Shown here: in pieces, positions 3,678 to 41,019 of the stretch | Layout of the letters: the number at the start of each line of letters is the position of its first letter | Numbering within the stretch: the first letter of the stretch is position 1 | DNA from: Tubulanus polymorphus | Taxonomy: Eukaryota; Animalia; Nemertea | Direction of reading: 5' to 3' | NCBI RefSeq assembly: GCF_964204645.1 | Contig: NC_134029.1 | Coordinates: 14,936,950 to 15,000,949 of the forward strand | Length of the DNA: 64,000 nucleotides | Notes under the pieces: model-generated | The model's input: only the letters and a program-made list of their open reading frames with translations | What the model was told of the DNA's origin: nothing | Database searches by the model: none | Translations under genes and position numbers: made by a program

Positions 3678-4475
3678 AGGCTGGCTTATGTCAACAAGCA
3701 AAGCAACGCCTACCGACGCAACTAGGTTTATCGCCAATTAGCGGCAACAAGCCGCCTACGAGAGGCCGCCAGTTGCTGCTCTATCGGTTCAACGTAAGCC
3801 GGCTTGCGACGGCAACCCGACGCCTACCGACTCGTCGCAAGCCGTATCCAGCTAGTTGCCAATGTTCTACTCCGGCCTACGGTATGCGGACAGTTGCTTT
3901 CGATCGCAACCGACATAAGCTCATCTGCGACGCGACGGAACTGAGCGCAAGGGTTCTAGCCAATAAGAGACCGCATATACACAGTACAAATTATGACCGC
4001 TAGTTAGCGTCATTCGTAGTTAATCATAAACTTTCAAATTCAAGTATTTCGAAACGTAAACCAAACCTTCAGCCCGGCAGATGACTGGACGGAAGATCTA
4101 GGAGCGAAATTGGTAGAATTATGGTGTGAGCGGCCATCTTTATATGATGTCGCTAGCACATTGTATTCAAAACAGAATCAGAAAGATAAAGATCTTAAAG
4201 AAATAACTTTTCTAAAAGAAATATATTCCCCAATAATTCAAAATAAATCAAATTTATTCTCAAAATGCTTATCACGTGACTATCTGAGCCGTTGCAGTTG
4301 CCAGTAATCGTAACTGACATAAGCAGGGAAGCAACTGGGAGGATCTCGTATAGTTGGCCTCAGTTGCTGCGAATCGGAGCGCAGCCAACATAAGTTGGGC
4401 TGCGATCGCGGTTGCTCTCAGTTGCGTCGGCAGGAGTCGGTCGGCGTCGAGTTGGTTGTCGACATATGCCAGCCT
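3678..4475. mobile_element. Non-autonomous PIF/Harbinger-type DNA transposon with a MADF/Myb-like remnant
   Basis: TIR AGGCTGGC(T/A)TATGTC(A/G)ACAA at both ends, TAA TSD (3675-3677 and 4476-4478); internal fragment LVELWCERPSLYDVASTLYSKQNQKDK resembles a MADF domain. Confidence 0.75.
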
Positions 4476-14304: not shown

Positions 14305-14649
14305 AAAAATGTGTACTGAAACACGGTTTAGTACCAAAAATAACTTACGCAATATTATACGTCCAATACAATAACATTAAGTCCAACGCGCAGGGATCCA
14401 TCGCAAAACATAGTTCACAAGATATAGTTTACACATCTGTGAAATCCATTTTTGAAGCACAAGGTAGAGCATCTGGTGTTGGCCCTGCCATCCATATACC
14501 TACTCACATGTCGGGACTTGCGGTCTATATACAAATGATGGTCTATATACAAGTGGTAGCTGATGTTGTATGATGATTCCAGTAGCACTGAAAAAGTAAA
14601 AATAAAAGGCCGGCAGAAAAAGTTCAGAACCAGGACTGAGGCAGGGATG

Positions 14650-14770
14650 AGTAATTAGAAGATGGCGTTTTCATACCAGAGGACGAGAGGACGAGACACC
14701 ACTCATCACCACAAGTAATTTTTTTCCTAACACTCATCACCACAAGTAATTTTTTTTCCTAATAAATGGG
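14650..14770 (+). repeat. Left terminal inverted repeat
   Basis: Exact reverse complement of 31098-31218; contains GAGGACGA x2 and CACTCATCACCACAAGTAAT(n)CCTAA x2, and ends in TAAATGGG. Confidence 0.97.
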
Positions 14771-15836
14771 GGAGAATGAACACCAACTAGAAAACAATAA
14801 TATCAATAAAAATCAATATTATTGTCAATATTGTAAAAAATACATCGATACATCTAATAAAACACGACATGAAAAAACTGCAAATCATATAAAAAATGTA
14901 ATAGATTTTGAAACTCCAGAAAATTCCAATGAAAGAAAAGAACGATTAGAAAATATGAATGTGAATGAAATAAAATGTGAAGTTTGTGATGAATTTATAA
15001 CAAAAAGGAATTATAATAGACATCTCGAAACAGAAAAACACCATCAAAATTTGAGAAATAATGTTTTAGGAATAGATTATTTTGATGATAAACCTCAACA
15101 AGTAAAAGAATCAACTTCAAAAACTAAATCCATTTCAAATAAACCTTACATGGAAAATGTTAGAAATTATATTGATTCACTAGAAATAAAAGATACAATT
15201 GAAATCTTAGAAACATTACATAGTAAAATTGGTCCTGCAGCTATTATATTTAGATTTTTTAAAGGTACAACAATAGAAGATTATAGTAAATTTAATGAAA
15301 TAATAGAAAAAATACTAGATTTGATAACAGATGTTGAATATCCAAAAATTAGTATCTCTGGGAAAGTAAGTTTTATAAAGTCAGAAGAAAAATGGATTAT
15401 AATATTCAAACACACTCTGAAGAAATAATTTCAAAAACACAAATAAAAGAGAAGTTAGAAAAAATATTAAATGAATTTAAACGTCATATTGAAGAAAGAT
15501 ATTTTGAGGGTTCTGGCTTAACATTGAATGAAATTATATATTTAGATTTAAATGTTTATAATACAAAAAGGAATAAAACATCAAAAAGTAATAAAATGTT
15601 TAAAAATGATTCAAACTTTACAACAGAAAAAGGATATGAAAGCATCAAGTTATATCAAATTACCGTTTACAACAAAAGCAGTAATAAATATTCAAAATGA
15701 AGATAATAAATGTTTTCTATGGTCAATTATTAGTTGTTTACACCAAACAGAAGATATGACGCATAGTTTTACAATAACAAATTACCGGAAATATGAAACA
15801 TTATATAAAATTGATCAATATCCAGTAACTATATAA
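14766..15836 (+). pseudogene. N-terminal part of pPolB (two C2H2/U1-type zinc fingers, terminal-protein region, start of vOTU-like domain), broken by two frameshifts and a stop
   Basis: Fragments 14766-15428, 15392-15700 and 15552-15836 join into the usual Polinton PolB N-terminus (GSGLTLNEIIYLDLNVY...SSYIKLP...KAVINIQNEDNKCFLWS); indels lie in A-runs at ~15390 and ~15630; TAA at 15834 is in frame with 15837. Confidence 0.8.
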
Positions 15837-18800
15837 ATGATTCCTAAAATAGAAAAAATTAATAATTTAAAAATAAATGTATTCGAATTAATGCAATTAC
15901 CAAAGACAAAAGGTGAAAATATTAAAGATTATACATTGGAAGCTTTATATTTAACAGAATATTATGATGATGAAAATGCTATAGATTTGTTATATTACAA
16001 AAAAGATGAAAATGAACATTATATGTGGTTAAAACAAATTGATTTATTCTTTAGAACAGAAAGTGATTTTAACAGCCATAAAATTTATCTATGTAGAAAA
16101 TGTTTATCTAAATTTAGAACTGAGAATACATTATTAAAACATAAAGAATTATGTGATAATAAAGATTTTTGTAAATTAATAATGCCAACAGAAAAAGATT
16201 ATAAATTGAAATTTACTAATCATAAATTTAAGAATATTGTTCCATTTGTAATTTATGGGGATTTTGAATCGTTGAATAAAGAATTAACCGATCAAGATAG
16301 AAAAGAAATATATAACAAAAAGCAATTATTAAAATCAATGGATAAAGGAAATGAATTAAATGAAGATATAATTCAAGATCCACCAATTATAAATACAATT
16401 AAAAAAGTTCATCAAAGAGCTGCTGCTTATGGAATTTACATCAAATCAAATTATCCCGAATTATATGAAAGTCAATATATTTCTTTTAGAGGTGAAAATG
16501 TAGTTAATGATTTTTGTGATAAAATGATTGAATTAGAAAGTGATTTTACAAAATTATTAAACAAAAATAAAAGAATAGTTATGACAAAAGAAGATGAAAT
16601 TGATTTTAATTATGCAACTCATTGTTGTTATTGTGAAAAACGTTTTTATTCATTTGATAAAAAAGTTAGAGATCATGATCATTTAAATTCAAAATATCGT
16701 GGAGCTGCTCATGAAGATTGCAATTTACAAGCTAAAAAAGTAAATTTCGTACCAATATTATTTCATAATTTATCAGGATATGATACCCATCTATTTATAA
16801 AACAATTATCAGGAAAATTGGGCGCAATTAATCAAGAAATAGAAGAATATAATGCTATGAATGAAGCAAATGTAAGAAAATATGATTTTAAACTATTAGC
16901 TAAAACATCTGAAAATTATATTTCATTTCAATTTGGTTGCATTAGATTTTTTTCAGATTCTTATAGATTTCTAGCAAGTTCATTAGATAATTTATCAAAA
17001 AGTTTAGTTGATAATGATTTTGTTATAACTCGATATTATTATCCAAATGAACAAGATTTTAAATTATTGAGATATAAAGGCGCAATTCCTTATTCATTTT
17101 ATAAAACACATAATGATTTTAATGTAACAGAATTATTAAAAGATCAATTTTATGATCAATTAAAAGAGGAGTATGTGAAAGACGAAGTGTTTAATAGAAC
17201 ATTAAATATTTGGAACCATTTTAAGATGAAAAATCATGGCGAATTAGTTGATTTATATTTAAAATCAGATGTTATGATATTGGCTGACATATTTGAAAAA
17301 TTTAGAGAAGTTAATTTGAATCATTTTAATGTTGATCCTTGTTATTGTTATTCAAGTCCTGGTTTAACCTGGCAATGTGGTTTAAAATATACAAATGTAG
17401 AATTAGATTTATTAAAAGAACCAGATATGGTTTTATTATTTGAAAAATCAATTAGAGGTGGAATAAGTGGTGTTATGGGAGATAGGTATTTTAAAGCAAA
17501 TGATGAATATAAATTATTATATATTGACGCCAATAATTTATATGGTTGGGCAATGATGCAACCTCAACCATATAAAAATTTTATATTAACAGAAGTTGAA
17601 AATGGTGATAAAACTGATTGGGAAAGCGCAATTATTAGTTTAAAAGATGAAGCACCAATTGGTTATTTCTTTGTAGTTGATTTAGAATATCCTGAAAATA
17701 TAAAGTTTAAAACAAGAAACTTACCTTATTGCCCAGAACATTTAACTGTAGATGATAGTTATTTAAGTGAATACCAGAAGAAAATAAAACCGAAAGATCA
17801 TGTTTTTACAGAAAAATTAATACTTACTCAAAATAATAAATACAATTATATTGTTCATTATAGAATGTTAAAATTTTATCTAAAACAAGGAATGAAATTA
17901 AAGAAAGTACATAGATATATTGAATTTAATCAATCGAAGTGGTTAGAAAAATATATAGATTTCAATACTCAACAGAGAACCATATCAAAAACAGATTTTG
18001 AAAAAGATTTCTTTAAATTAATGAATAATAGTTTTTATGGTAAAACATGTGAAAATATTAGAAATAGAAATGATATTGAATTAGTGAATAATTCTGAAAG
18101 ATTAAGACATTTACAATCAAGTCCTAGACATTTAGGAAATAAAAGATTTGAAGATTATTTAACAGCAGTAAAATTAAAAAGAACGTCCATGAAATTTAAT
18201 AAACCAATATTTATAGGTTCAACCGTTTTAGAAATTTCAAAGCTATTGATGTATAATTTTTATTACAATGTTTTACAACCATTGTTTGGGGAAAAACATA
18301 TAGAAATTCTGTACTTCGATTCTGTAACGGCCGACACCCCAATATTATTAAAATGTAATAATAAAATATTGGTAAGAAGAATTTCAGAAATAATTCCAAA
18401 ACAAAATGAATGTTATATTTCATATGGTGAAAAAGAACTAATACAAATAAATGGATTAATGGATGTTTGGACAAGAAATGGATGGAAAAAATTAAAGAAT
18501 ATTATTAGGCATAAAACAAATAAGAAAATCTATAGAGTTAGAACTAAATTAGGATTCGTAGATGTTACTGAAGACCATAGTTTAATTAAACGAAATGGTG
18601 ATGAAATAAAACCAACTGATATAAAAATTGGAGATGAATTATTACATAAAAGATTTTTCCAAAGAATGAATCATATGTCATTTGATGAAATAATTGATAA
18701 TATTTATAATATAGAACCCGAAACATTAGAAGAAAAAGAATATTTTATCAAAGGATTTTTCATGGGTGATGGTTCAGCAGGTGTGTATAAATATGTTTGG

Positions 18801-19841
18801 GGTAATAAATATTGTTGGTATTTATGCAATCAAGACTTGAAATTATTAGAAAGAATTAAGAAATTCTGTGAAGAAGTTTATTCACATAAAACATTTAGAA
18901 TCATGGATGTTATGAAATCATCAGCAGTTTATAGAATACTTGTAAATAATCCTAAAGATTTTGCTATAGAATATAATGATGAATTCTATATTCATGCAAT
19001 AGTGAAAAGTAATACTTCAACTAAAGAAAAAATAGTACCAGATTATATATTAAATTCAGAATATAATCTTAGAAAATGGTTCTTCATTGGGTTCTACGCA
19101 GCCGATGGTACTAAAAAATTTATAAAGGATAAAACGATAACCTTTGCACAGAAAGGAAAATGTGCAATAAGTGGGTTAAATGTGTTATGCAGTTCATTAG
19201 GATTTAATATGAATATAGAATTAATTAAATCTAAACCAAATTGTTTTAATTTAAGGCATGTAGAAAAAGAATTAACAGAAGAAGTTAAAGATTTATTTGA
19301 AATATATAACCCAACTGACTATGTTTATGATTTATCAACAGATGATGGAAAATTCAATTCTGGGTTCCCATTAATCAAAAAAAATACGGATGCGTACATA
19401 CTAAAAATCAAGACAAATGACATAACAAAAGACTTAAAAACATTAAAACATCATTTTGATTTTAGCAATTATCCTAAAGATCATGAATTATTTAGCAATG
19501 ATAATAAAAAGATTCCTGGTAAATTTAAAGATGAATTAGGAGGTGATGAAATGATTGAATTTGTTGGGATAAGAAGTAAAATGTATAGTTACAGAACAAA
19601 AGATCATGAAGCTAAAAAGTTAAAAGGAATAACAAAACATGTGGTTGATAAACATATAGAATTTCAAGATTATATAAAGTGTTTATATAAATCAATTGTA
19701 ATGAAACACAAGATGAATTGTTTAAGATCAGAAGATCATGAGATGTATATTAATGAAGTTGAAAAAACTAGTTTAAATCCATTTGATGATAAAAGGCATA
19801 TTTCAGATGATGGTATAAAAACGTTACCTTATGGTTATTAA
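15837..19841 (+). CDS. polB: Protein-primed family B DNA polymerase (pPolB) with an EndoVII/HNH-like insert and an intein
   Basis: ExoI YGDFES, ExoII FHNLSGYD, ExoIII YLKSDV; CxxC...VRDHDH...YRGAAH..CN; motif A YIDANNLYGWAM, motif B KLMNNSFYGK, motif C YFD|TDA split by the intein, KMYSY, KLKGI. Confidence 0.96.
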   Translation: MIPKIEKINNLKINVFELMQLPKTKGENIKDYTLEALYLTEYYDDENAIDLLYYKKDENEHYMWLKQIDLFFRTESDFNSHKIYLCRKCLSKFRTENTLLKHKELCDNKDFCKLIMPTEKDYKLKFTNHKFKNIVPFVIYGDFESLNKELTDQDRKEIYNKKQLLKSMDKGNELNEDIIQDPPIINTIKKVHQRAAAYGIYIKSNYPELYESQYISFRGENVVNDFCDKMIELESDFTKLLNKNKRIVMTKEDEIDFNYATHCCYCEKRFYSFDKKVRDHDHLNSKYRGAAHEDCNLQAKKVNFVPILFHNLSGYDTHLFIKQLSGKLGAINQEIEEYNAMNEANVRKYDFKLLAKTSENYISFQFGCIRFFSDSYRFLASSLDNLSKSLVDNDFVITRYYYPNEQDFKLLRYKGAIPYSFYKTHNDFNVTELLKDQFYDQLKEEYVKDEVFNRTLNIWNHFKMKNHGELVDLYLKSDVMILADIFEKFREVNLNHFNVDPCYCYSSPGLTWQCGLKYTNVELDLLKEPDMVLLFEKSIRGGISGVMGDRYFKANDEYKLLYIDANNLYGWAMMQPQPYKNFILTEVENGDKTDWESAIISLKDEAPIGYFFVVDLEYPENIKFKTRNLPYCPEHLTVDDSYLSEYQKKIKPKDHVFTEKLILTQNNKYNYIVHYRMLKFYLKQGMKLKKVHRYIEFNQSKWLEKYIDFNTQQRTISKTDFEKDFFKLMNNSFYGKTCENIRNRNDIELVNNSERLRHLQSSPRHLGNKRFEDYLTAVKLKRTSMKFNKPIFIGSTVLEISKLLMYNFYYNVLQPLFGEKHIEILYFDSVTADTPILLKCNNKILVRRISEIIPKQNECYISYGEKELIQINGLMDVWTRNGWKKLKNIIRHKTNKKIYRVRTKLGFVDVTEDHSLIKRNGDEIKPTDIKIGDELLHKRFFQRMNHMSFDEIIDNIYNIEPETLEEKEYFIKGFFMGDGSAGVYKYVWGNKYCWYLCNQDLKLLERIKKFCEEVYSHKTFRIMDVMKSSAVYRILVNNPKDFAIEYNDEFYIHAIVKSNTSTKEKIVPDYILNSEYNLRKWFFIGFYAADGTKKFIKDKTITFAQKGKCAISGLNVLCSSLGFNMNIELIKSKPNCFNLRHVEKELTEEVKDLFEIYNPTDYVYDLSTDDGKFNSGFPLIKKNTDAYILKIKTNDITKDLKTLKHHFDFSNYPKDHELFSNDNKKIPGKFKDELGGDEMIEFVGIRSKMYSYRTKDHEAKKLKGITKHVVDKHIEFQDYIKCLYKSIVMKHKMNCLRSEDHEMYINEVEKTSLNPFDDKRHISDDGIKTLPYGY
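18321..19385 (+). mobile_element. Intein (355 aa) with LAGLIDADG homing endonuclease, inserted in PolB motif C
   Basis: Block A SVTADTPILL, block B VDVTEDHSL, dodecapeptides YFIKGFFMGDGS and WFFIGFYAADGT, block F YVYDLST, C-terminal KKN followed by +1 Thr; removal restores YFDTD. Confidence 0.93.
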
Positions 19842-20608
19842 AATGGATCTATATCATCAAACTCGAAATCACTATTGGCTTCTTCATTTTCATTTAATTG
19901 TTCAGGTTCTTCTTCCATTCCATTTTTCTCATTTAAATAAAGTTCTATCTTGTTCCACATTTCATCTCGCTCTCTTTGTTTCTTTTTGTTTGTTAATTCA
20001 TCAAATGGAATTATAATATCTAGGTTTAAATAATTTACAATCTTATTTAAAAAGAATTCATAATTTATTGAATCTGTTATTCTATTTTCCAAATGATACA
20101 TTAATATTTGTTTAAATATTTTTTTTATATTTTCCATATCTTCTTCTGTTAATTTAGGTTTTTCATAATAATCGTTAAATAATAAATATAAATACATTTT
20201 CTTTTGTTTTGTGTTAAATGTTGGTGGAATAATTGTTTTTATAATATCTTTTTTAGTTATTTCACCATTTTTATTTTCTATTATTTTCATTTTTTCAAGC
20301 CATTGCATATATTCTGGTGTATGATCTTCCATGGAAAATATTTTAAAAATTTCATCAAGATAATTTAATTTTGGTTCTATGAGAAAATTTCTAGTTTTTT
20401 CTTCACCCCATAAATTCTTTTGCCATCCACATTCAACACAAAATAACACAGTACCTTCTTGCCTTAAGGTCGCATAACTACATTGTGGGCATTTTTGTTT
20501 ATAATTTCTTGGTAATAGATCTTCATTAAGCTCTTGGTATTTTCTTACGTTTTCTTTATGTTTTATTGTTCTATTATGTAGATTTGAATTACTTGTTGTA
20601 ATAATCAA
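19838..20608 (-). CDS. Poxvirus late transcription factor VLTF-3 (A2)-like protein
   Basis: N-terminal Zn ribbon CPQC-x13-CVEC, then RNFLIEPKLNYLDEIF and KLTEEDMENIKKIFKQIL...SINYEFFLNKI...QRERDEMWNKI, collinear with remembered VLTF-3 motifs (INYSFFLDKI; C-terminal W); ORF starts at TTG. Confidence 0.75.
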   Translation of the reverse strand: MIITTSNSNLHNRTIKHKENVRKYQELNEDLLPRNYKQKCPQCSYATLRQEGTVLFCVECGWQKNLWGEEKTRNFLIEPKLNYLDEIFKIFSMEDHTPEYMQWLEKMKIIENKNGEITKKDIIKTIIPPTFNTKQKKMYLYLLFNDYYEKPKLTEEDMENIKKIFKQILMYHLENRITDSINYEFFLNKIVNYLNLDIIIPFDELTNKKKQRERDEMWNKIELYLNEKNGMEEEPEQLNENEEANSDFEFDDIDPF

Positions 20609-20623
20609 TTTACAATATTTATA

Positions 20624-21136
20624 TTAATATGTTTTTCTTGTTAATTCATTATATTGTTTTTCTAACTTTTCAACTGTTTCTTTATTATCTGGTAACGTTT
20701 TCTCATATTTTATTTTTTCTAATAAATTATTTTTTCTTTCATTGAATTCAGTTTCAAATTTATTAGAAATTTTATCTATATGTGCTTTACGAAATTGATG
20801 ATTCTCCCAATCTTCTATATTTTCAGGGCTATATTTTACTTGACAAGGCTCACAGAAATGATCTTTTATATTATCCTTATCATAGAATAAGAAAGGTCTT
20901 TTCCAAATAACTTCAGGTTCAACTTCAGCAGAATTACTATCAACATTAGCCGTTGCGCTATTAATTCTACACTTCTCTGAATGTTTTTTAACATAATTTC
21001 TTGAGAATAATTTATTACAATTTGGACAGTTTATTTTAGGGGGTTTATAATTTTCATCATGTTTTTTCATATGTCGAGCCATATTACTTTTTCTTAGAAG
21101 TTCACCACAAATTTCGCATGCTATCTTCTCATCCAT
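20624..21136 (-). CDS. Zinc-finger protein (three C2H2/C2HC-type fingers)
   Basis: CEIC-x12-HMKKH, CPNC-x12-HSEKC, CEPC...HQFRKAH; TAAATG start. Confidence 0.8.
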   Translation of the reverse strand: MDEKIACEICGELLRKSNMARHMKKHDENYKPPKINCPNCNKLFSRNYVKKHSEKCRINSATANVDSNSAEVEPEVIWKRPFLFYDKDNIKDHFCEPCQVKYSPENIEDWENHQFRKAHIDKISNKFETEFNERKNNLLEKIKYEKTLPDNKETVEKLEKQYNELTRKTY

Positions 21137-21204
21137 TTATTAAGGAAAAATTTTATTAAAATTAATTTTTAGTGATGAGCGGTAATTTTTTTATGTTATA
21201 AATA

Positions 21205-21963
21205 ATGGTAGAATTAAAAGAATACAGAATATTTATTGATTCTAGAAAACTTACAAATTATAAATCTCATAATTTACTAGTACAATTAGATAGAGAATTC
21301 AAGAATTGTGTAGATTTAAAATTAGTTAATATAAGTTTATGTAATTCTTTTTATAATATATCGGATAAAAGTCTAGAACATTTAATTTTTTCAATCTTTT
21401 ACAAAAAAAGGAATAAATGGTTTTTTATATATTTAAAACCAGGATTATATAATTTAGATACATTAACACAAGAAATTAATAGAAAAGCTCGAGCTAAATT
21501 AGGAAGTGATTCCGGATTTAGTATTAGAATTTTAAAAAGTGCTAGTTCTAATAAAATAAAGATTAGGTTAGCTAATGACGAACAATTTAAATTTACAGTA
21601 AGAAAACCTTTAGCTAAACTGTTAGGAATTGTACCAGATACCGTTACAGCATACGCAGAAGGTAAATCAAACTTAATACCTTTTACACATTTTTATATTT
21701 ATTGCAATTTAATTGACCCAACAAAAACATTTGAAGCAACTAAAGATACAATTTGTAATTCTGGTTTATTAAATATTTTACCATTAAAAAATGTTAAAGA
21801 ATTTGGAACGCAAATAAATTATAATTTAACTGAATGTGATTTCAAACCTTGTATTCCACATTTCAATAATTTTAAATTAGAAATAAGAAATCATAATGGT
21901 TATTTAATTGATTTGAATAACTTTCCTGTGATATATGAATTAGTTATAAGATGTAAAGAGTAA
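21205..21963 (+). CDS. Minor capsid (penton, single jelly-roll) protein
   Basis: Polinton penton pattern: IFIDS...V.LDRE...NSFYNI...PGLYN...YIYCNLID...LEIRNHNGYLIDLNNFPVIYEL. Confidence 0.75.
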   Translation: MVELKEYRIFIDSRKLTNYKSHNLLVQLDREFKNCVDLKLVNISLCNSFYNISDKSLEHLIFSIFYKKRNKWFFIYLKPGLYNLDTLTQEINRKARAKLGSDSGFSIRILKSASSNKIKIRLANDEQFKFTVRKPLAKLLGIVPDTVTAYAEGKSNLIPFTHFYIYCNLIDPTKTFEATKDTICNSGLLNILPLKNVKEFGTQINYNLTECDFKPCIPHFNNFKLEIRNHNGYLIDLNNFPVIYELVIRCKE

Positions 21964-21979
21964 TTTTTCACCTTTATAA

Positions 21980-22336
21980 ATGAATATAACTGTCGGACCG
22001 AGTATATGTTTTGGATTTGATTTTAAACGTGAGAAAGAAATGAAATTTAATATGAATGATGTAATAACACATATCAAAAATATTGCATTTTCTAATGAAA
22101 CAACATTTGAGTATGAAACAACAATTGATAAAGAAACTTTAAATGTAGAAAAGATTACTAATTTAATTAGAGAATCTTTAAGATTTTATGAATTAGATGA
22201 AGATTTTATCATCGATGATATTAAAAACATATTATCCAAAATATATGATAATCATAAAACTAGTAATAAAATAAATGTTGAAATAATCATAAATAAGTTA
22301 ACTAAATATTTTGATGATAGTAATTTTTTTGATTAA
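21980..22336 (+). CDS. Hypothetical Polinton protein (118 aa)
   Basis: Intact ORF with T-tract/TAAATG start in a tightly packed gene run. Confidence 0.65.
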   Translation: MNITVGPSICFGFDFKREKEMKFNMNDVITHIKNIAFSNETTFEYETTIDKETLNVEKITNLIRESLRFYELDEDFIIDDIKNILSKIYDNHKTSNKINVEIIINKLTKYFDDSNFFD

Positions 22337-22339
22337 TAA

Positions 22340-22561
22340 ATGAGTGATAATAAATGGATAATAACTGGATTATATAATGGCGCATTACTATCAGTTGGAA
22401 CGGTTGGTTATTCAATGGTATTAGAAAAAGTATTCAAAATGGGAAGTGTTAATGTTGATAGATTTGATATCAATGATATTTTGAAATTAACGTTAGCAGT
22501 TACTTTATCTAATTTAACTATTGATTATTTGGAAAAACAAAAATATATTCCTCCCATATAA
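22340..22561 (+). CDS. Small hydrophobic/membrane protein (73 aa)
   Basis: Two hydrophobic segments; TAAATG start. Confidence 0.7.
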   Translation: MSDNKWIITGLYNGALLSVGTVGYSMVLEKVFKMGSVNVDRFDINDILKLTLAVTLSNLTIDYLEKQKYIPPI

Positions 22562-22585
22562 ATGCATAATTTTTTTGTTAAATAA

Positions 22586-23008
22586 ATGGCTTCTGCAATT
22601 ATAACTATTATAGGATCGGCAATTGTTAACGCTTTAGCATTTACAGGTGGCGGTTATTTATTTAAACATATTGATAAAAATAGTTCATTAGGAGAACAAA
22701 GAAGACATAACTTAGCGTTAGAGAAATATAATAAAGCTGCAGAAGAATATAGAGAAAAACGACAAAACTATATGGATTATATTAACAAAGAATTATATAA
22801 TCAGAAGATTTCACATAGAGATTTTCAATCAGTTGATGATGCAATGAGTTTATATAACGCGGTAACCAATAAAGAAAAATTACATCTATACAAACCTAAA
22901 TTATCAGATTATTATACCCCAAGTAAAGAACAACAGAAATATGAAATAATTTGGATTTTAGGTGGATCAGTTATTGTTATATTTGTTGCTTATAAATTTA
23001 CTAATTAG
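22586..23008 (+). CDS. Membrane protein with N- and C-terminal hydrophobic segments and a central coiled coil (140 aa)
   Basis: MASAIITIIGSAIVNALAFTGGGYLF ... IIWILGGSVIVIFVAY; TAAATG start. Confidence 0.75.
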   Translation: MASAIITIIGSAIVNALAFTGGGYLFKHIDKNSSLGEQRRHNLALEKYNKAAEEYREKRQNYMDYINKELYNQKISHRDFQSVDDAMSLYNAVTNKEKLHLYKPKLSDYYTPSKEQQKYEIIWILGGSVIVIFVAYKFTN

Positions 23009-23027
23009 TAATTTTTATTCTAAATAA

Positions 23028-23462
23028 ATGGAAGATAAAGTTGATAGTATTGATATTATTCCTCATGATATAAATAAAACTAAATTAAAAACATATTTAG
23101 AAAAACAAATATTAGAATTTGAAAGTGACTTAAAGATAAAAAAGAAAAAATATTTAAAAAGTAAAATTATATATTATTTGATTATAAGTGGTTCGGTTAC
23201 AATTAGTTCTGTAATAACATTTCTAGCAATATTCAGTCCATTAACACCTTTAGCTATATCAATTGGTGTATTAGGATTAAGTTCAAGTGTTTTAACTGGT
23301 ATAAGTTCAAAATTAAATATAAAAAGTAATAAAGAAAAAATTAAAACTAATATAAAAGAAATTAATAAATTAAAGAATACACTAGATTATATAATAAGTT
23401 TAAATGGTCATATAACAGTTGAAGAACAAGATAAATTATTAAAAGAATTAATAAATTATTAA
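23028..23462 (+). CDS. Two-TM membrane protein (144 aa)
   Basis: Hydrophobic hairpin IIYYLIISGSVTISSVITFLAIF / LAISIGVLGLSSSVLTGI flanked by Lys-rich helices. Confidence 0.7.
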   Translation: MEDKVDSIDIIPHDINKTKLKTYLEKQILEFESDLKIKKKKYLKSKIIYYLIISGSVTISSVITFLAIFSPLTPLAISIGVLGLSSSVLTGISSKLNIKSNKEKIKTNIKEINKLKNTLDYIISLNGHITVEEQDKLLKELINY

Positions 23463-23479
23463 TTTTTTTAATTATATAA

Positions 23480-24868
23480 ATGGTAGATAGTTTTCCAAAA
23501 GCTTTCCAATATAATAAATCAATTAAATATAATATTCCAACAATAGATTTTAATAAAGATATTACATATAGAAATGAAGTTTTAGATTCATTAACTAATT
23601 TAGAAATTCATGTTACTGAAACTAATAATTTTAATGCAAAGATGGAAAATATATTTCATGTATATTTGATTAATTTTAAAAAATTGAAAGATGAAAAACA
23701 ATGGTTATTAAAATCTAATATGAAGTATTGGCAGAATCAATTAAATTTTGCTGTTTATTGTGCAACAACAGGTTGTGGAATTAGTTGGAATGATCATTAG
23801 AATAATTCTAAATATAAATTAATTCAAAGTTTATTTAGATTTCATACATACTTTCAAATCAGAATAATATTAAATGAATTAGAGTGCGCTTTACCAGGAT
23901 CTAGGTATTTCAAAGAATTGGATAATAATATTAATTTATCAAAGTTTTATAAAATTTGTAATGAATTTAATATAGATATAAAAAGTTCTGATTTTAGAAC
24001 AAAAATTGGAACAATAAGATCACTTCCTTGCCCTAGAAAGATTGCAGAATATTGTGCACTTCCCATACCATCTAATAGTTTTTATAATATCTATAATAAT
24101 AAATTAGGTTATGGTAAAATAGAAACAAAAGATTTAGAAACATTAAATTTCAATAAATTACCAAAATTTTATGATCATTTAAAACAAGAAAACAATAATG
24201 GTTGGGTATATTTTATTTTAGAGAATAGTGAAGGTTTTACTAAATCAGGTATAGAAAGAATAAATCAATCTATTAGAACTTATTTAATTTGTATTCTAGG
24301 ATCACAAGTTGAAACAAGATCACCGATAATTGGAAATTTGAATACATCATTTGATACACAAAAACAATTTAAAGTTTTATTTGAAGATTCAATTCATAAT
24401 GATAAAAATAGATCGATTCCAGAAAACATTATAAGATATCAAAATTATTTAGATAAATCTCATGTAAGACTTAATTATTGTATAGGCCCTAATCTATTAA
24501 TTATTTCTAATGATTTAGTATTAAAGATGGGAAATATAATTGGTTATAATAATCTAATTAAAACTGCAACAATAAATAATTCATTTGGATTAAATGATAT
24601 AAATAAAAAGATTATTACTGCTCCAAAATTAATGGAAGGTGAAAAAAATAAAAAACATATTCAATCAACTGAAACTAAAACTAAGAATATTAAATTAAAT
24701 AATGATTCTAAAATAAAAGATTACAATACATCAGAAGATATAAAAACTGATAAAATTCAACATGATATAATTAAACTAAATGATGATAATAAATCCCATG
24801 AAAATACTAAATTAGCTATAACTTGTATAGGAATTGTAATCGGAGGAATATTATATTTTAAATTCTAA
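23480..24868 (+). pseudogene. Single ~462-codon gene with a C-terminal TM anchor, interrupted by one in-frame TAG (23798-23800)
   Basis: ORFs 23480-23800 and 23918-24868 share a frame and the sequence between them is open (NNSKYKLIQSLFRFHTYFQIRIILNELECALPG); only 23480 has a TAAATG start. Confidence 0.75.
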
Positions 24869-24885
24869 TTTTTTTTATTATGTAA

Positions 24886-26325
24886 ATGGATGTAGAAGGT
24901 GGAGAAGATTATGAAATGGAAGGCATGGGAAATAATAATGAAGGATATATTGATGATGAACCACAACCCGATTTTAATGAAACTAATATTGATAATGATG
25001 ATGAATCAGCATATAATTCTAATTTAACTACACCTCAATATATTGATAAAACACGTTCAAAGATAAGTATTGAAAATGAAGTACCAGAAATAACAGAAAA
25101 AGAATACAATTATAATGAAATTATTCATGAATTTAAACCAATATTAAAAAGATCTGGTTTCAATATAACAAATAAAGGTATGAATTATTTAGTAAAAGAT
25201 TTAAAATATTTAAATGGTGATTATAATTGGAAATTGAAAGGCGACTATTATTTTAAGATTTCAAATCTTAAAAGTAACGATAAAATAATAACACAATCAA
25301 CTTTTAATTTATTTAAACCAGATAGAATTAAGAAAATCATTGATGATGTTATAACTGATGTTACACAAGAAGAAAGAGATTATAATATAAAAGAATTTAA
25401 ACAAAGAAATGCTAAATTTTTTGAGATAATTAATGAAAATTTAAGACAAAAAAAAATTCCTAAAGAAGTTATTAATTCCAAAACTAGTAAACCTAATTCA
25501 AGCGAAGTTCAAACTGAAAAACTTTTACCAAATGGATTACTTGATGCAACAGATCAACAATTAGAAGATTTAAATATATTTTCTGATGAAGCAATTAGAG
25601 AAATTATTAGTATAAGAAATGAAGCTGATAAAATTGTACATAATAAAAGTATAAGAGATCAAAAAATTAGAACTTTAGAAAAAGAATTAACTGATAAATA
25701 TAAAGAAATAGAACAATTAAAGTCTGATTTAGATCATCAAGCAATTGATGAAATAGAATATAGGCAAAAAGAATTACGTTTAGAAAAAGAAAAAGATTAT
25801 TTAGAATATAACATAGAATTACAAAAAGAAGAAATTAAATCATTATTAAAATCATATGAATATAATATTGATAGATTAAAAGTTATTTTTAAAGATTTGT
25901 TGATTAAACCAAATTCTGAAATATCATTAAAAGACAGAATAAAGTTATTATTTAAATTAGAAGGAATAACAATTCTTTCAATTCTAACAGCTGTAACTAT
26001 GTTATTTACAACAATTGGTTTAGCAATATCAAATGCTTTGAAATCTACTCCTACTCCAAATAAACCAGATAAACCTCCAGGCAATAATTCTATACAAGAT
26101 AAAGTTAAAGATGGTTTAAAAAAATTAGCAAAATATTTATGGGAACTATCAAAGAAATCTGCTGCAGCATTGCCAGGAGTTATTGCTTCAATTGTTGGTT
26201 TTATATTGAAATCTGCTGGGAATATTCTTAACTTTGCTGCTGAACATATTATTTTATTTTTAATTACAGTTGTAAGTGCTATTATTTTTGGGTTAGTGAA
26301 TATGATATCAAAAAATATCAAGTAA
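24886..26325 (+). CDS. Coiled-coil protein with acidic N-terminus and C-terminal multi-pass hydrophobic region (479 aa)
   Basis: Long heptad-like region, then ITILSILTAVTMLFTTIGLAI, Pro-rich linker, ALPGVIASIVGFIL and IILFLITVVSAIIFGLV. Confidence 0.8.
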   Translation: MDVEGGEDYEMEGMGNNNEGYIDDEPQPDFNETNIDNDDESAYNSNLTTPQYIDKTRSKISIENEVPEITEKEYNYNEIIHEFKPILKRSGFNITNKGMNYLVKDLKYLNGDYNWKLKGDYYFKISNLKSNDKIITQSTFNLFKPDRIKKIIDDVITDVTQEERDYNIKEFKQRNAKFFEIINENLRQKKIPKEVINSKTSKPNSSEVQTEKLLPNGLLDATDQQLEDLNIFSDEAIREIISIRNEADKIVHNKSIRDQKIRTLEKELTDKYKEIEQLKSDLDHQAIDEIEYRQKELRLEKEKDYLEYNIELQKEEIKSLLKSYEYNIDRLKVIFKDLLIKPNSEISLKDRIKLLFKLEGITILSILTAVTMLFTTIGLAISNALKSTPTPNKPDKPPGNNSIQDKVKDGLKKLAKYLWELSKKSAAALPGVIASIVGFILKSAGNILNFAAEHIILFLITVVSAIIFGLVNMISKNIK

Positions 26326-26376
26326 ACCATGATATCAAAAAATATCAAGTAAACCATGATATCAAAAAATAAATAA
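26302..26376 (+). repeat. 27-bp tandem duplication (~2.6 copies) across a stop codon
   Basis: ATGATATCAAAAAATATCAAGTAAACC repeated. Confidence 0.9.
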
Positions 26377-26396
26377 TTAATTTTTTTGTTAAATAA

Positions 26397-27644
26397 ATGA
26401 GTGGGAGTTATATAAGTCCTTCGAAGAATCATAGAATATCTAATGCTATTAAAGCAGAAAGATCACATCATATAATTACTCATAACCCTTCAAATATTAA
26501 TCCCGATGAAACTTTATACGTTAGAATCCCTCGATTAACACAAAATACTTTTTATGTTCCAAATAGTATTTATTTATCAGCCGATATAAAAGTAACTGGC
26601 CATGATAACAATTATGTTGTTGATAATGTTGGAAGATATTTGATTAAAAAATTAACTATAAAGATTGGTCCGGAAACAGTTTTCTCATTAGATGATTATA
26701 ATTTATTTATGCATTATAAAGATTTATGGTTAACTAAAGAAAATAGAAATAATATGATATTTCAAGGCATCCAATCGGAAAACCATAATAAATTAAGATC
26801 TGAAGCCAATAATGCAGTAGTAACTCGTGCCACAGATAATTTGATTAAAAAGATTTATGGAAGCAAATATAAAATTCCATTAGACTTTGAATTGATAAAT
26901 AATAATGCACCTTTATATAAATACGCAATTCAAGAAGATATTATATTTGAGATAACATTTGCTCCTGTAAATGAAATTGTATTATCTAGCGTTGTTAAAG
27001 ATATGGGTTATAAATTATCGAATATATGTTTAGAATATAACACAGTAACTAATGAAAATATTGCTAGCACAATTCAAACTCAATACAATCAAGGATTTTC
27101 ATTATTATATGATTATATTGATAAATTTAAAACTGTAACTATTAATGCAAATGATGAAATAATTAATGAGAATATTAACTTTCCTAGAAGATCTATTAAA
27201 GGTATATTAATATTTTTTACTATTGCAACATACTCTAATGGTGCAATAAATGTTGATAATTATTATAATCCTGAAATAACAAAAGTAGAAATAACTATCG
27301 AAGGAATAGCGAATAAAATATTTTGTCAAGGAATGAGAATGATTGATCAATGGCCAGAAATTAGAAAACATTTTATGAATGAAAAAGTAAAATCATCTGA
27401 AAATTGTAATATTAATCAAATTGATTATTATACCGGTAATAAATATGCATTATGGTTAGATTTTAGAACAACAGAGGATAATTTATTACATGGTTCTGGA
27501 AAAAAACTACAGAACACTAAAGATGGAATACAATTATTCATGAAAAAGAATAAAGGAATCAAAAATTTTAAAATGCACATTTATATTATATCTGACGCAC
27601 AATTAAATATTGTAAATTCACAATTAGATAGTATTCAATATTAG
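26397..27644 (+). CDS. Major capsid protein (double jelly-roll), 415 aa
   Basis: Size, beta-rich pattern, position next to integrase, motifs ITHNPS.I.P...LYVRIP.L and YALWLDFRTTEDNLLHGSG typical of invertebrate Polinton MCPs. Confidence 0.75.
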   Translation: MSGSYISPSKNHRISNAIKAERSHHIITHNPSNINPDETLYVRIPRLTQNTFYVPNSIYLSADIKVTGHDNNYVVDNVGRYLIKKLTIKIGPETVFSLDDYNLFMHYKDLWLTKENRNNMIFQGIQSENHNKLRSEANNAVVTRATDNLIKKIYGSKYKIPLDFELINNNAPLYKYAIQEDIIFEITFAPVNEIVLSSVVKDMGYKLSNICLEYNTVTNENIASTIQTQYNQGFSLLYDYIDKFKTVTINANDEIINENINFPRRSIKGILIFFTIATYSNGAINVDNYYNPEITKVEITIEGIANKIFCQGMRMIDQWPEIRKHFMNEKVKSSENCNINQIDYYTGNKYALWLDFRTTEDNLLHGSGKKLQNTKDGIQLFMKKNKGIKNFKMHIYIISDAQLNIVNSQLDSIQY

Positions 27645-27674
27645 AAATATAAAGTTAAAATTAAGGATATATAA

Positions 27675-28802
27675 ATGAGTGGTAAAAAAACTCCTAATAC
27701 TAAAGAACAATATTTAAGAAATTTATATTACAACCCTGAGAGTTCGGTTGCTTATTCTTCTACTAAAAATATATGGCGTAAAGTAAAACAAGATAAATTA
27801 GATAAGATAATCCCACAAAATTTAGTTAAATATAAAGATATAAATGAATTTATGTTAGAACAACCAACATATACAACACATAAAAAAATTGTTAGAAAAT
27901 ATAAAACTCGTAAAACTATGGTAAGTTATGTAGATCAACAGTGGCAAGGAGATTTAATTGATATGAAAAATGTTAAGAAAGATAATGATGATTATTGGTG
28001 GTTATTGAATATAATTGATATTTTTAGTCGTTATGTATGGAGCTTCCCACTTTATAGAAAAGATGCTGCACAAACATCACATGTTTTAAGAAAATTTCTT
28101 TCAGGTGGTAAACTAAAACCAGAAAAAATTCAATTTGATGATGGAAAAGAATTTGATAATTCATTAGTTCATGGACTTTTAGATTTTCATAATATTAAAT
28201 ATTTTTCGACAAAATCGGATAAAAAAGCAGCAGTTGTTGAACGATTTAATAGAACATTGAGAACAAGAATGTCAAAATATTTCACAGCAAATAATACTTA
28301 TAAATGGATTGATGTTTTACCAAAATTGATAGAAGGATATAATAATTCTTATCATTCTTCTATTGGAATGAAACCTATTGATGCTAGAAAACCTGAAAAT
28401 GCTGAAATTGTTTGGAATAATTTATATGGAGCATTTCTTGTTGATGATTTTGGTGAACCTAAATTTAAAGTTGGTCAAAATGTTAGAATTTCTAAGTATA
28501 AAAAGATATTTGACAAAGGATACGATCGAAATTTTACTAGAGAAATATACAAAATAAAAAAGGTAATAACAACAAAACCATATGTCTATAAATTAGAAGA
28601 TTTAGATGGTGAAGAAGTTGATGGCTACTTTTACGAAGAAGAATTAAGTTTAACTACTGAAAATCTAGAACAAGAATATAAAATTGAAAAAGTACTAAAA
28701 ACAAAAACTGTTAAAAGAAAAAAATATTCTTTAGTAAAATGGGTTGGATGGCCAGATAAATTCAATGAATGGATATTATCAAGTAAAATTAAAAATATAT
28801 AA
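27675..28802 (+). CDS. int: Retroviral-like (rve) DDE integrase with C-terminal chromodomain
   Basis: WQGDLIDM, IDIFSRY, QFDDGKEF, VVERFNRTLR; C-terminal YKIEKVL...LVKWVGWPDKFNEWI. Confidence 0.95.
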   Translation: MSGKKTPNTKEQYLRNLYYNPESSVAYSSTKNIWRKVKQDKLDKIIPQNLVKYKDINEFMLEQPTYTTHKKIVRKYKTRKTMVSYVDQQWQGDLIDMKNVKKDNDDYWWLLNIIDIFSRYVWSFPLYRKDAAQTSHVLRKFLSGGKLKPEKIQFDDGKEFDNSLVHGLLDFHNIKYFSTKSDKKAAVVERFNRTLRTRMSKYFTANNTYKWIDVLPKLIEGYNNSYHSSIGMKPIDARKPENAEIVWNNLYGAFLVDDFGEPKFKVGQNVRISKYKKIFDKGYDRNFTREIYKIKKVITTKPYVYKLEDLDGEEVDGYFYEEELSLTTENLEQEYKIEKVLKTKTVKRKKYSLVKWVGWPDKFNEWILSSKIKNI

Positions 28803-29411
28803 ATGAATAAGGAATTATTTATATTTGAGCCCCATAATATGTTAATTTCTGGTGTAACAAATTGTGGAAAAACTTATTTTATATTAAATTTATTAGAAAC
28901 TGTTTATGAAAACTATTTTGATAATATAGTATTATTTTGTCCAACATATGAATTTAATCAAACTTATGATAGAAATATTACTAGAAATAATAAATTTATT
29001 ATATTAGATCCTAAAACAGTAAAAGAAAATTTAGATAATTGTATAAAAATAGCAATTGATATTTATAAAGGATCTAATACATTATTTATTATTGATGATT
29101 GCGCAAATTTACATGATTCTAAAATTAGAGAAAGTGAGTTATGCTATTTAGCTTTCTCTGGGAGACATTTTGGGATAACAACTTGGGTTTTAAATCAAAA
29201 ATATAATTCAATTGTTAAAGACTTTAGAGAAAACATTAGATTTCTAGTTTTATTCTACAATAAAGATAGAAAATCGATGAAAAATGCACTTGAGGAAAAT
29301 GATATTATTCCACATGATTTACATAATGAATATATGGATAAGTTGAAAAATATTAAAAGATCAAAATTACTATTTAGATTACAACACCCATTTAAATATG
29401 AATTTATTTAA
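28803..29411 (+). CDS. A32/FtsK-like DNA packaging ATPase
   Basis: Walker A GVTNCGKT, Walker B LFIIDD, GRH...LNQ motif. Confidence 0.92.
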   Translation: MNKELFIFEPHNMLISGVTNCGKTYFILNLLETVYENYFDNIVLFCPTYEFNQTYDRNITRNNKFIILDPKTVKENLDNCIKIAIDIYKGSNTLFIIDDCANLHDSKIRESELCYLAFSGRHFGITTWVLNQKYNSIVKDFRENIRFLVLFYNKDRKSMKNALEENDIIPHDLHNEYMDKLKNIKRSKLLFRLQHPFKYEFI

Positions 29412-29690
29412 ATTCAACTAGCTTGTTAATCTAATTGAATTCTAGTTGAATTCTAGTTATTGGTAGTTGTAACAAAAATCAACTAGATTTAACAATATTT
29501 TAACTAGCTTGTCAATCTAGTCTAATTCTAGTTACATTCTAATTGAATTCTAGTTGTTAGTAGTTGAAACAAAAATCAACTAGATTTAACAAGAAATAAA
29601 CAAAAAACAACAATATTTCAACTAGCTTGTTAATCAATTTGAATTCTAGTTACATTCTAGTTACATTCTAGTTAAATTCTAGTTGCAACA
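29412..29690. repeat. Intergenic array of short direct and inverted CTAG-core repeats (AACTAG / TTCTAGTT)
   Basis: More than a dozen CTAG cores as caactag and ttctagtt in ~280 bp. Confidence 0.8.
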
Positions 29691-29718
29691 TCACACAATT
29701 AATTTTTTTGTTATATAA

Positions 29719-30324
29719 ATGGGAGGTGAAAAGAAAATAAAATCTAAAAATGGTGATGTTCCAATTGAAAAAACTTTAGATGATTTAGGAATAACAGAAA
29801 CAAAATTAACTCCAGATGATGGTGCTTTAAATATTGTTACAACAAATAATAATTATGAATATTATCTTTATTGTAAACATCAATTAGAAATATTAATAGC
29901 ATCTGGAAAATGTAAAAATTTTGTCGGTAAAAATTTAACTTATAATGAATTAGATACAATGAAATCAGTTGAAATTATTAGATTATTTAAGATTTATGAA
30001 GCCGCGAGAACAGCTAAAATCAATGACGCGATATCAGAAAATGTAGTAAAAGGTTATAGTAAATTATGTAATTATATACTACCAATTGAAGATGAAAATA
30101 GATTATATTCCGATTTAAAAAATGATTATTTAGTTATGACTGAATTAAATAAGTGGATTGGATATTTATCATTTCAATTAGGTGGATTTATGACATTATT
30201 ATCAACCGGGGTTATAACATTTTCAAATATTGAAAGTAAAAATATTTCTATAATAAATGAGCGAAGTGAAAGAAGTGAAGGAATTAACTGTGAAGAAAAA
30301 ACCGAGAACTCAGAAACAAATTAA
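29719..30324 (+). CDS. Conserved hypothetical Polinton protein (201 aa)
   Basis: TAAATG start; decayed homolog at 33406-33940; hydrophobic C-terminal segment. Confidence 0.8.
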   Translation: MGGEKKIKSKNGDVPIEKTLDDLGITETKLTPDDGALNIVTTNNNYEYYLYCKHQLEILIASGKCKNFVGKNLTYNELDTMKSVEIIRLFKIYEAARTAKINDAISENVVKGYSKLCNYILPIEDENRLYSDLKNDYLVMTELNKWIGYLSFQLGGFMTLLSTGVITFSNIESKNISIINERSERSEGINCEEKTENSETN

Positions 30325-30625
30325 ATGGTCTCGACAATTAGGAATTAAATCACAAGAATATAAAAAAGCTGTAAAAGAAAAAATAAGTAATAAAAATGTT
30401 AATAAAAATGGTGAAAATATTGTTATTTCTACTCCTTCTGATAGTAGAATATTTGATAAATATCTATATTTTACAGTTGGATTTGTAATTGTATTCATTT
30501 TGGTTGGGTGTAATTGGTATAAGAAATCAAATAAAATTCATGATAGTAATAATTCTGAAACAACTGCTATCAAAAATGAAAATACTTCTGAAATTCCAAA
30601 ATTGATAATAAAAAAAATGGATTAA
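30257..30625 (+). CDS. Basic single-TM protein (122 aa)
   Basis: KKPRTQKQIKWSRQLG, TM YLYFTVGFVIVFILVGC; decayed homolog near 33925-34260. Confidence 0.75.
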   Translation: MSEVKEVKELTVKKKPRTQKQIKWSRQLGIKSQEYKKAVKEKISNKNVNKNGENIVISTPSDSRIFDKYLYFTVGFVIVFILVGCNWYKKSNKIHDSNNSETTAIKNENTSEIPKLIIKKMD

Positions 30626-30669
30626 TATTTTAGAAAAAAGCAAAAAAATAATTTTTTTTAATTAATTGA

Positions 30670-30742
30670 ATATCTCACTACTTTTGTCTATCTATGTGGA
30701 GCAATTAAATTGTCCAGATAAGTCATTTCGGATTCTAGATAT
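30670..30742 (+). other. Conserved, putatively structured non-coding element of the Polinton
   Basis: Reverse-complement homolog at 33080-33154 in the second Polinton; nested stems retained. Confidence 0.65.
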
Positions 30743-30775
30743 TCATTATTTCTATTAATTTATTTTTTTAAAAAT

Positions 30776-31102
30776 TTAATTAACAATTTCTAAATCATGA
30801 TGACCGTCTTCATTTTTCCCATGATATATTATTTTAAATCCTACTAAATCTTTCAATTCCTCCGTACTCAATGAAACCCATTTATCGGGTAAAAACACTT
30901 TAAATTCTCGCGATGTACTAACATTACAGTAGCTTAAATTAGCTGATACTTTCTCTCCATATTTAGTTTTTATCTTTTCTAATTTCAATATTTTATGTTC
31001 AATTTCTTTTGTAACATCAACTAACTTTTTTATTTCAAATTGTTTTTTTGCTGGTTTTATTCTGTTATTTATTGTTGCTAAGAATGCTTTTCTATCTCCC
31101 AT
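30776..31102 (-). CDS. Small basic beta-rich protein (108 aa; TKYG...VFLP), possibly nucleic-acid binding
   Basis: ATG lies inside the right TIR behind the TAAATG motif; function is a guess. Confidence 0.65.
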   Translation of the reverse strand: MGDRKAFLATINNRIKPAKKQFEIKKLVDVTKEIEHKILKLEKIKTKYGEKVSANLSYCNVSTSREFKVFLPDKWVSLSTEELKDLVGFKIIYHGKNEDGHHDLEIVN

Positions 31103-31218
31103 TTATTAGGAAAAAAAATTACTTGTGGTGATGAGTGTTAGGAAAAAAATTACTTGTGGTGATGAGTGGTGTCTCGTCCTCTCGTCCTCTGGTATGAAAA
31201 CGCCATCTTCTAATTACT
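31098..31218 (-). repeat. Right terminal inverted repeat
   Basis: Exact reverse complement of 14650-14770, followed by TSD GGGATG. Confidence 0.97.
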
Positions 31219-31224
31219 GGGATG

Positions 31225-35412: not shown

Positions 35413-35414
35413 TT

Positions 35415-40997: not shown

Positions 40998-41019
40998 CTA
41001 AAATAACGCGACAAAACAA

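Follow-up and report, generated by a model that had tools for sequence, protein, structure and literature searches.

A full-length LAGLIDADG intein in the catalytic motif of a Polinton DNA polymerase, with intein-containing and intein-free copies in one species

Can an intein persist in the catalytic centre of a polymerase that belongs to a chromosomal mobile element, and where would such an intein have come from? This question is raised by a stretch of 64,000 nucleotides (contig NC_134029.1, positions 14,936,950 to 15,000,949 of the forward strand), which is called the window in the following and whose first letter is position 1. The window contains a Polinton/Maverick element, and the gene for this element's protein-primed DNA polymerase of family B (PolB) carries a large insertion in motif C. 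The insertion is a full-length intein in the catalytic motif of the polymerase of an integrated, multicopy Polinton, and empty sister copies exist beside it. It is predicted to splice, and we find it probable that it persists by homing.

The initial annotation of this DNA described a 355-residue in-frame insertion between Tyr-Phe-Asp and Thr-Asp of motif C, and translation and sequence bear this out. Positions 18321-19385 of the plus strand hold 355 codons without a stop, in frame within an open reading frame (ORF) of 1334 residues, and the parts of this ORF flanking the insertion match DNA_pol_B_2 (PF03175). The residues that had been named, i.e. Ser1, the TxxH of block B, the acidic residues of both LAGLIDADG motifs, the terminal Lys-Asn and the Thr at position +1, are all present at their places. 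Conservation was scored over the 66 rows of an alignment of relatives (A1), 26 of which end before the last column. Ser1 is found in 63 rows, Thr83, His86 and Asp337 in 65 each, Asp150 in 55, Lys237 in 64, Asp262 in 58 and Asn355 in 40. The class 1 splicing residues are thereby complete except for the penultimate His, which is usual in class 1 inteins, though some differ, and which is replaced by Lys354. Lys stands at this place in 25 of the 40 rows that extend to it, His in 13 and Ser in 2. The nuclease part has two LAGLIDADG motif helices (residues 136-150 and 248-262), each closing on an acidic residue (Asp150 at 18768 and Asp262 at 19104), together with a basic residue in block D (Lys237 at 19029). 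Compared with most relatives, block G is short by one residue, a form that recurs in the remaining Polinton inteins and in one giant-virus-type group.

A match to the Hint domain was obtained with TIGR01445, the N-terminal region of inteins (31.1 bits against a cut-off of 24.5, spanning residues 2-88). In Pfam, Intein_splicing matches with E 3e-7, below its curated cut-off, and LAGLIDADG_3 (PF14528) with E 7e-7, above it. A structure model folded from alignment A1 reached a predicted local distance difference test (pLDDT) value of 93.4 and a predicted template-modelling score of 0.92, and folding from the single sequence gave a pLDDT of only 34. The N-terminal Hint region is all-beta in this model. 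A Hint fold is predicted from the match of the model to solved inteins and from TIGR01445. The best solved-structure matches are the endonuclease-bearing class 1 inteins TliVMA (7qsu/7qss), PhoVMA (7qst), PI-PkoII (2cw7), PI-PfuI (1dq3) and PI-SceI (1vde), with E from 8e-18 to 4e-11 and a TM-score of up to 0.64 over the query; PI-PkoII is also alike by sequence (E 1e-5). The insertion differs from these in its low identity (12-18%), shorter length, Lys before the final Asn and host protein. The best viral structure matches are PolB inteins of a phycodnavirus and a pandoravirus, at 25-31% identity. A Hint domain of the Hedgehog type or of the bacterial intein-like type was considered and rejected, as both exteins and the nuclease are present.

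In class 1 inteins the His of block B assists in forming an ester at Ser1, this ester is attacked by the +1 Thr, and the terminal Asn cyclises. From its residues, the intein of the window would splice itself out of the polymerase by this route: the ester at Ser1, the attack by the +1 Thr and the cyclisation of Asn355 would restore an Asp-Thr-Asp motif. As the catalytic motif itself is interrupted, splicing would be required, and because the site is catalytic, imprecise loss of the intein would be lethal to the polymerase of the element. The freed intein nuclease would then cut the empty motif-C DNA of sister copies, and repair from a filled copy would convert the cut one; the intein likely persists by such homing. 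This could take place between chromosomal copies or between free replicating forms.

The initial annotation had suggested that intein-free alleles be looked for, and they were found in the same species. Sequencing runs labelled organism A were used: four runs, which may include the source of the window, contain 48-60% of the sampled words of the gene (one study, two samples), and a further run, X6, was used as raw reads, about 12% of which were read. In the intein region of X6, 80 of 3043 aligned reads join both exteins across the intein and leave motif C uninterrupted; six such joints occur among those listed, with offsets that come from nearby differences. One contig of run X3 likewise joins the exteins without the intein. 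Run X5, a marine metagenome (share 0.06), gave 49 short contigs, 95% of which continue into unlike sequence, so that no habitat was read from it, and run X8 gave no matching reads. The depth in X6 is about 230 into the intein and about 400 just upstream, which means that roughly 60% of the aligning copies carry it. Over the polymerase the depth is about 340-475, against about 19 in the single bin of flanking DNA. At the left terminus of the element there are 579 loose read ends, whose agreement is only 0.38. Such low agreement is expected from many insertion sites. Provided that the flank is single-copy, these values point to a family of about 20 element copies for each flank equivalent, spread over many sites. 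The element is integrated in chromosomal DNA, as seen from its target-site duplication and from the varied flanks in the reads.

Silent changes were counted on the 40 best-supported of 542 differences between copies. The intein holds 28 of these 40, of which 14 are silent, against 21% expected (p 0.0008), 14 replace a residue and none makes a stop; the exteins hold the other 12, with 10 silent. Frame-breaking insertions and deletions among those listed occur mostly in 2-4% of the reads. Near 18,925, about 15% of the reads combine a loss with a gain in such a way that the frame is kept. Read depth falls to about 90-100 at 19100-19191, within and after the second LAGLIDADG motif. This is the stretch where other copies diverge most from that of the window, and it may mark subfamilies that differ in nuclease specificity.

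The same data bear on the suggestion that the insertion is functionless, either as a decayed intein or as a chimera with a giant-virus contig that arose in the assembly. This copy of the polymerase gene is indeed broken upstream, near 15,390 and 15,635, where the tblastn match of the intact relative P0271 falls in three frames, and another gene of the element has an in-frame stop; these may be true lesions or assembly errors. The intein itself, however, is an open frame with all key residues kept. Reads and contigs of runs X1, X2, X3 and X6 cover it and span its junctions, the target-site duplication is exact, and the same intein occupies this site in independent polymerases of the Polinton type. 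Decay or chimerism is therefore largely refuted by the read data and barely conceivable.

Further signs of homing come from other Polinton families. The clusters of P0003 (136 members, contigs up to 1 Mb) and P0005 (121 members) each hold filled and empty versions. Comparison of P0003 with P0249, P0250 and P0252, three out of five such comparisons, shows 10 to 18 differences in 1041 N-extein residues (about 1%), and in the same three comparisons 4 of 10 residues differ on each side of the intein site. The excess of differences extends some 80 residues into the C-extein, and two more distant empty relatives of P0003 give the same local peak. This tract has the pattern of co-conversion, or else of resistant targets. 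In P0257 and P0260 the flanks are identical, and one of the two has the intein while the other does not.

The intein could also be a passive rider, which splices but no longer homes. The filled copies would then be one Polinton subfamily multiplied by transposition and the intein-free copies another one, perhaps resistant. In the intein-free X6 reads several bases beside the site are not those of the window copy, both alleles coexist with neither sweeping, and in the main polymerase group the trees of intein and polymerase are largely parallel, all of which would fit such a rider. Against it, Asp150, Asp262 and Lys237 of the nuclease are kept with silent changes in excess, two other families contain near-identical sister polymerases of which one has the intein and the other lacks it, and the intein state is scattered on the polymerase tree. 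We regard the passive rider as unlikely, though it deserves more weight than the other alternatives discussed here.

The relatives of the intein were used for placing its origin. Its closest matches in longer proteins are other PF03175-type polymerases, all with the intein at the same site: P0002 (63% identity), P0003 (49%), P0004 (47%), P0006 (47%) and P0005 (46%), followed by P0010 and P0011 (42% each); a fragment, P0402, is 74% identical. Most members of the family sit in PolBs of the RNA-primed, giant-virus type, with 108 of the 120 matches listed in one search and 136 of the 150 in another. In viral and metagenome contigs, two scans turned up 37 and 80 intein loci. All classifiable ones lie in RNA-primed PolBs, and no Polinton-type polymerase was classed among these 117 loci, many of which are on metagenome-assembled genomes (MAGs) of giant viruses; the neighbours of one, L009, fit that label. 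The description of the insertion as a full-length LAGLIDADG intein at the giant-virus PolB intein site stands.

An intein is rare among the closest polymerases, as had been expected: 4 of 120 listed relatives of the window polymerase carry one and 102 have a clear empty site, the remaining 14 being incomplete or not matched by the site pattern. P0122-P0125, whose N-exteins are 71-83% identical to that of the window, are without exactly this insert. Among the 102 empty sites (P0122-P0239), 35 read Asp-Cys-Asp instead of Asp-Thr-Asp, and the residues adjoining the empty site vary between near-identical polymerases; both may reflect escape from the nuclease. Members of the window intein's family are found in type II topoisomerases, a dihydrofolate reductase-thymidylate synthase and the DNA polymerase delta of Chloropicon as well (P0007, P0099, P0116, P0025, P0119). 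They sit mostly between Asp and Thr-Asp, which suggests non-allelic jumps to look-alike sites.

An unrooted IQ-TREE phylogeny was made of 51 of 199 non-redundant inteins, chosen to include all eight complete Polinton-type ones. These eight form one clade (100/100), whose sister is a group of 12 inteins of RNA-primed PolBs (87/84) with the same short block G, two of them on contigs of giant-virus MAGs. FastTree with all 199 rows gave the Polinton clade again (100), but with a different sister. For the polymerases, a tree of N-exteins was made from 43 chosen rows, 11 with and 32 without an intein, two rows having been dropped as they did not match at the site. The intein state changes 10 times on this tree, no fewer than with shuffled labels, a count which on chosen rows describes patchiness and not a rate. 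In the main polymerase group, three deep intein branches match three polymerase branches, and intein and extein identities are alike (63/58, 49/46 and 42/42%). The intein is thus an old resident of this group. P0006 behaves differently: its intein is 47% identical to that of the window (E 2e-97), and its exteins have no BLASTP match to those of the window (best E 2.4 and 0.16). An intein so alike between exteins that cannot be aligned implies a transfer between distant polymerase lineages, whatever the exact place of P0006 in the tree. The comparison of intein and extein trees that the initial annotation had called for thus gave mostly congruent deep branches, with P0006 and the patchy intein state departing from them.

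From these results, the Polinton inteins were likely captured once, long ago, from a giant-virus-type RNA-primed PolB with an intein at the homologous site, and since then they have likely moved inside Polinton families and, on one or more occasions, from one polymerase lineage to a distant one. The direction from giant virus to Polinton is suggested by the much greater diversity on the giant-virus side, not by a rooted tree. The initial annotation had instead proposed that this element acquired its intein from a large DNA virus during co-infection. The motif-C site and the end residues are as in giant-virus PolB inteins (in the portion of PMC549080 available), and most family members lie in giant-virus-type PolBs, as a direct capture by this element or a recent ancestor would have it. 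However, the best giant-virus-type matches are only 40-44% identical, below the five Polinton-type inteins at 46-63%, the Polinton inteins are monophyletic, and the G+C content of the intein (25.5%) matches that of the exteins (23.2 and 25.4%). A direct capture is therefore very improbable, and the proposed giant-virus link holds as an old one, for the Polinton clade as a whole. The likeness to mimivirus holds for the site and the end residues, and not for closeness of relationship, as the Megavirus PolB intein is only 27% identical.

Several points weigh against an intact, homing intein with this history, and they are given together here. The penultimate residue is Lys rather than His, and the +3 residue is Ala, where most relatives have Ser. 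The polymerase of the window is frameshifted upstream, so that the protein of this copy may not be made in full. The silent-site test uses the 40 best-supported differences only. The flank tract of P0003 could reflect nuclease-resistant target sites and not co-conversion, and no local peak of differences is seen between the window copy and its nearest intein-free relatives. The parallel branches and similar identities would also fit long vertical descent with repeated loss. The sister link to giant viruses is moderate (87/84), differs in FastTree and comes from unrooted trees, and an approximately unbiased test does not reject P0006 outside the other seven Polinton inteins (p 0.14). Finally, the identification of the host depends on a Penelope-like element that is closest to animal clusters of the Atlas.

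Taking the homing reading further, animals may harbour a living intein lineage, a natural homing element placed one level higher than a transposon, that homes among germ-line Polinton copies, cuts empty copies at many loci, drives escape of the active-site motif and jumps between polymerases that cannot be aligned. This extension is tentative, and we would call it possible rather than probable.

The intein family and the insertion site are known, and new is the carrier, i.e. integrated Polintons of at least several lineages, with polymorphism within a species. The PolB intein of mimivirus has 351 residues and lies in motif C (Ogata et al. 2005, PMC549080, text available in part), and Green et al. 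(2018, PMC5784728) tabulate 67 viral DNA polymerase inteins and, in the part available, describe inteins as absent from metazoan genomes. Judged from the available parts of these sources, the PolB inteins of Nucleocytoviricota and the intein of the window are alike in length (about 350 residues), first Ser, last Asn, +1 Thr, TxxH, LAGLIDADG motifs and homologous site, and they form the same sequence family with 30-44% identity. They differ in that the intein of the window is in a protein-primed PolB (PF03175) of a 16.6-kb integrating element, whereas those of giant viruses are in RNA-primed PolBs (PF00136). Furthermore, it is chromosomal, multicopy and polymorphic within one species, and belongs to a Polinton clade of its own.

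Virus-like polymerase inteins have been found on nuclear scaffolds of Klebsormidium, Tetrabaena and Hondaea and in DNA polymerase delta of Chloropicon primus (Gallot-Lavallee et al. 2023, PMC10710043). These too are virus-related PolB inteins in eukaryotic nuclear genomes, and the Chloropicon one belongs to the family of the window intein (P0119, 32%). As far as the available part of that paper goes, they concern algal and protist hosts and endogenous giant-virus genes, with Polintons unmentioned, whereas the intein of the window is in a high-copy integrating element of a probable animal. In Polinton polymerases, insertions of HNH and VSR nuclease domains were reported by Jeong et al. (2023, PMC10748475), in a text whose available part contains neither of the words intein and LAGLIDADG, and Krupovic et al. 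(2024, PMC11071308, also in part) suggested that such nuclease domains derive from intein invasions. Those insertions, as described there, are bare nucleases at other positions with no Hint domain reported, whereas the present one is a full Hint and LAGLIDADG intein in the catalytic motif. The Polintons, Mavericks and adintoviruses of Starrett et al. (2021, PMC8502044), as far as available, share with the element of the window the terminal repeats, the 6-bp duplication and the genes for protein-primed PolB, rve integrase, A32 ATPase and a VLTF3-like protein; in the element of the window no cysteine protease was recognised in the scanned frames. The available main text of that paper has no occurrence of the word intein, and PMC12220804 and PMC5718144 mention inteins in general terms only. 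In the literature searched, which did not extend to subscription journals and Repbase reports, we found no account of an intein with a Hint domain in the PolB of a Polinton or in any other protein-primed PolB.

The finding gives direct support to the idea of inteins invading Polinton polymerases. It also ties Polintons to giant viruses through a mobile element common to both, which means that the two must once have shared a cell. Should the host be an animal, its chromosomal DNA contains an intact intein that is apparently maintained, the carrier being a virus-like element rather than a host gene. The presence of filled as well as empty alleles within a single multicopy family makes this a tractable system, where long reads of one genome can serve to follow homing, co-conversion and escape of the target.

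The element at 14650-31218 is a Polinton/Maverick, as had been annotated. It has AG...CT inverted repeats with 124-nt arms that are 99% complementary, a perfect 6-bp target-site duplication, and genes for a protein-primed PolB, an rve integrase and an A32 ATPase. Its G+C content is about 23%, against about 37% in the flanks. The features are collected in Table 1. Polintons characteristically encode a double jelly-roll major capsid protein and a penton; for these, only the weak Capsid_N and DUF5901 matches of the table were obtained, and the candidate minor capsid gene may encode the penton. A 460-codon gene at 23480-24868 of the plus strand belongs to no known family and has one in-frame stop at 23798-23800, and short direct repeats lie at 29413-29673 and 26302-26371. 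An adenovirus-type cysteine protease is usual in Polintons; no Pfam protease match was found in the 20 element frames scanned, which include only some of the short and broken ones.

Table 1. Coordinates of the intein, its host gene and the Polinton element in the window.
Feature	Position	Strand	Basis or remark
Class 1-type intein of 355 residues, two-motif LAGLIDADG endonuclease set into a Hint domain	18321..19385	+	Translation, Pfam, TIGR01445, model, residues
N-terminal Hint region	18321..18650	+	Ser1 (18321), block B Thr83 (18567) and His86 (18576); region end approximate
LAGLIDADG endonuclease domain	18726..19259	+	PF14528, model helices, I-DmoI and PI-type structure matches
C-terminal Hint region	19281..19385	+	Block F Asp337 (19329), Lys354-Asn355
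+1 Thr of C-extein (motif C Thr), predicted nucleophile for extein ligation	19386..19388	+	Sequence; same Thr in intein-free relatives
Protein-primed PolB ORF, 1334 residues, holds the intein	15837..19841	+	PF03175 E 3e-18; PF02945 in relatives
Polymerase gene, 5' part, split over three frames; zinc-finger-like start	14766..15836	+	tblastn of intact relative P0271
Whole Polinton/Maverick, 16,569 bp	14650..31218	.	Terminal repeats, target duplication, gene content
Left terminal inverted repeat, 124 nt, starts AG, two 31-nt repeats inside	14650..14773		
Right terminal inverted repeat, 124 nt, ends CT	31095..31218		
Target-site duplication, left copy, 6 bp	14644..14649		
Target-site duplication, right copy, 6 bp	31219..31224		
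VLTF3-like gene	19838..20332	-	PF04947 E 5e-6
Candidate minor capsid gene	21205..21963	+	DUF5901 with E 0.0014, under its cut-off
Candidate major capsid gene, 415 residues	26397..27644	+	Capsid_N E 0.02 only; size, position
Retroviral-type integrase with chromodomain	27675..28802	+	rve E 5e-9, Chromo E 2e-4
A32-like packaging ATPase	28803..29411	+	Pox_A32 E 3e-13

The host of the element is likely an animal, to which the mobile-element neighbours point. At 56468-58901 of the minus strand lies a Penelope-like retroelement with reverse transcriptase and GIY-YIG in two frames. Its reverse transcriptase is nearest to Atlas clusters that have an 'animal HTH' domain and are found most often in Arthropoda, Rotifera and Chordata (score 0.97 for the three best matches); one lower-scoring match is fungal. 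The alternative is another repeat-rich eukaryote, in which case the window would be a protist or algal nuclear scaffold with a virus-borne intein, as is known for PolB inteins of Klebsormidium, Tetrabaena and Hondaea (PMC10710043, available in part). No host gene was recognised through Pfam, PDB or exact look-up, which leaves room for such a host; Pfam recognised none in 91 of the 118 flank frames of at least 75 residues. The grouping of the reverse transcriptase with animal clusters stands against it, as does a weak MADF-domain remnant at 4020-4304 of the plus strand (E 0.011), and we hold a host other than an animal to be quite improbable.

Some further observations concern the flanks. Positions 2047-2247 of the plus strand look like a spliced last exon coding for a WD40-like peptide, with an AG acceptor at 2045-2046 and a stop at 2245-2247. 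This exon gave no PDB or exact look-up match and only E 0.14 in Pfam; it may resemble the C-terminus of animal DmX-like/Rabconnectin-3 alpha proteins, which would likewise speak for an animal host. A decayed fragment of a second Polinton lies at 33400-35420, with DNA about 68% identical to the integrase and the 29.7-30.4 kb genes of the main element. Pfam matches to Med25 in the flanks were rejected as an artefact of long open frames that arise from a 31-bp satellite. This satellite is CG-rich, has a higher-order period of 93 bp and covers positions 41007-43918, 45646-47250, 60810-62185 and 63597-63997.

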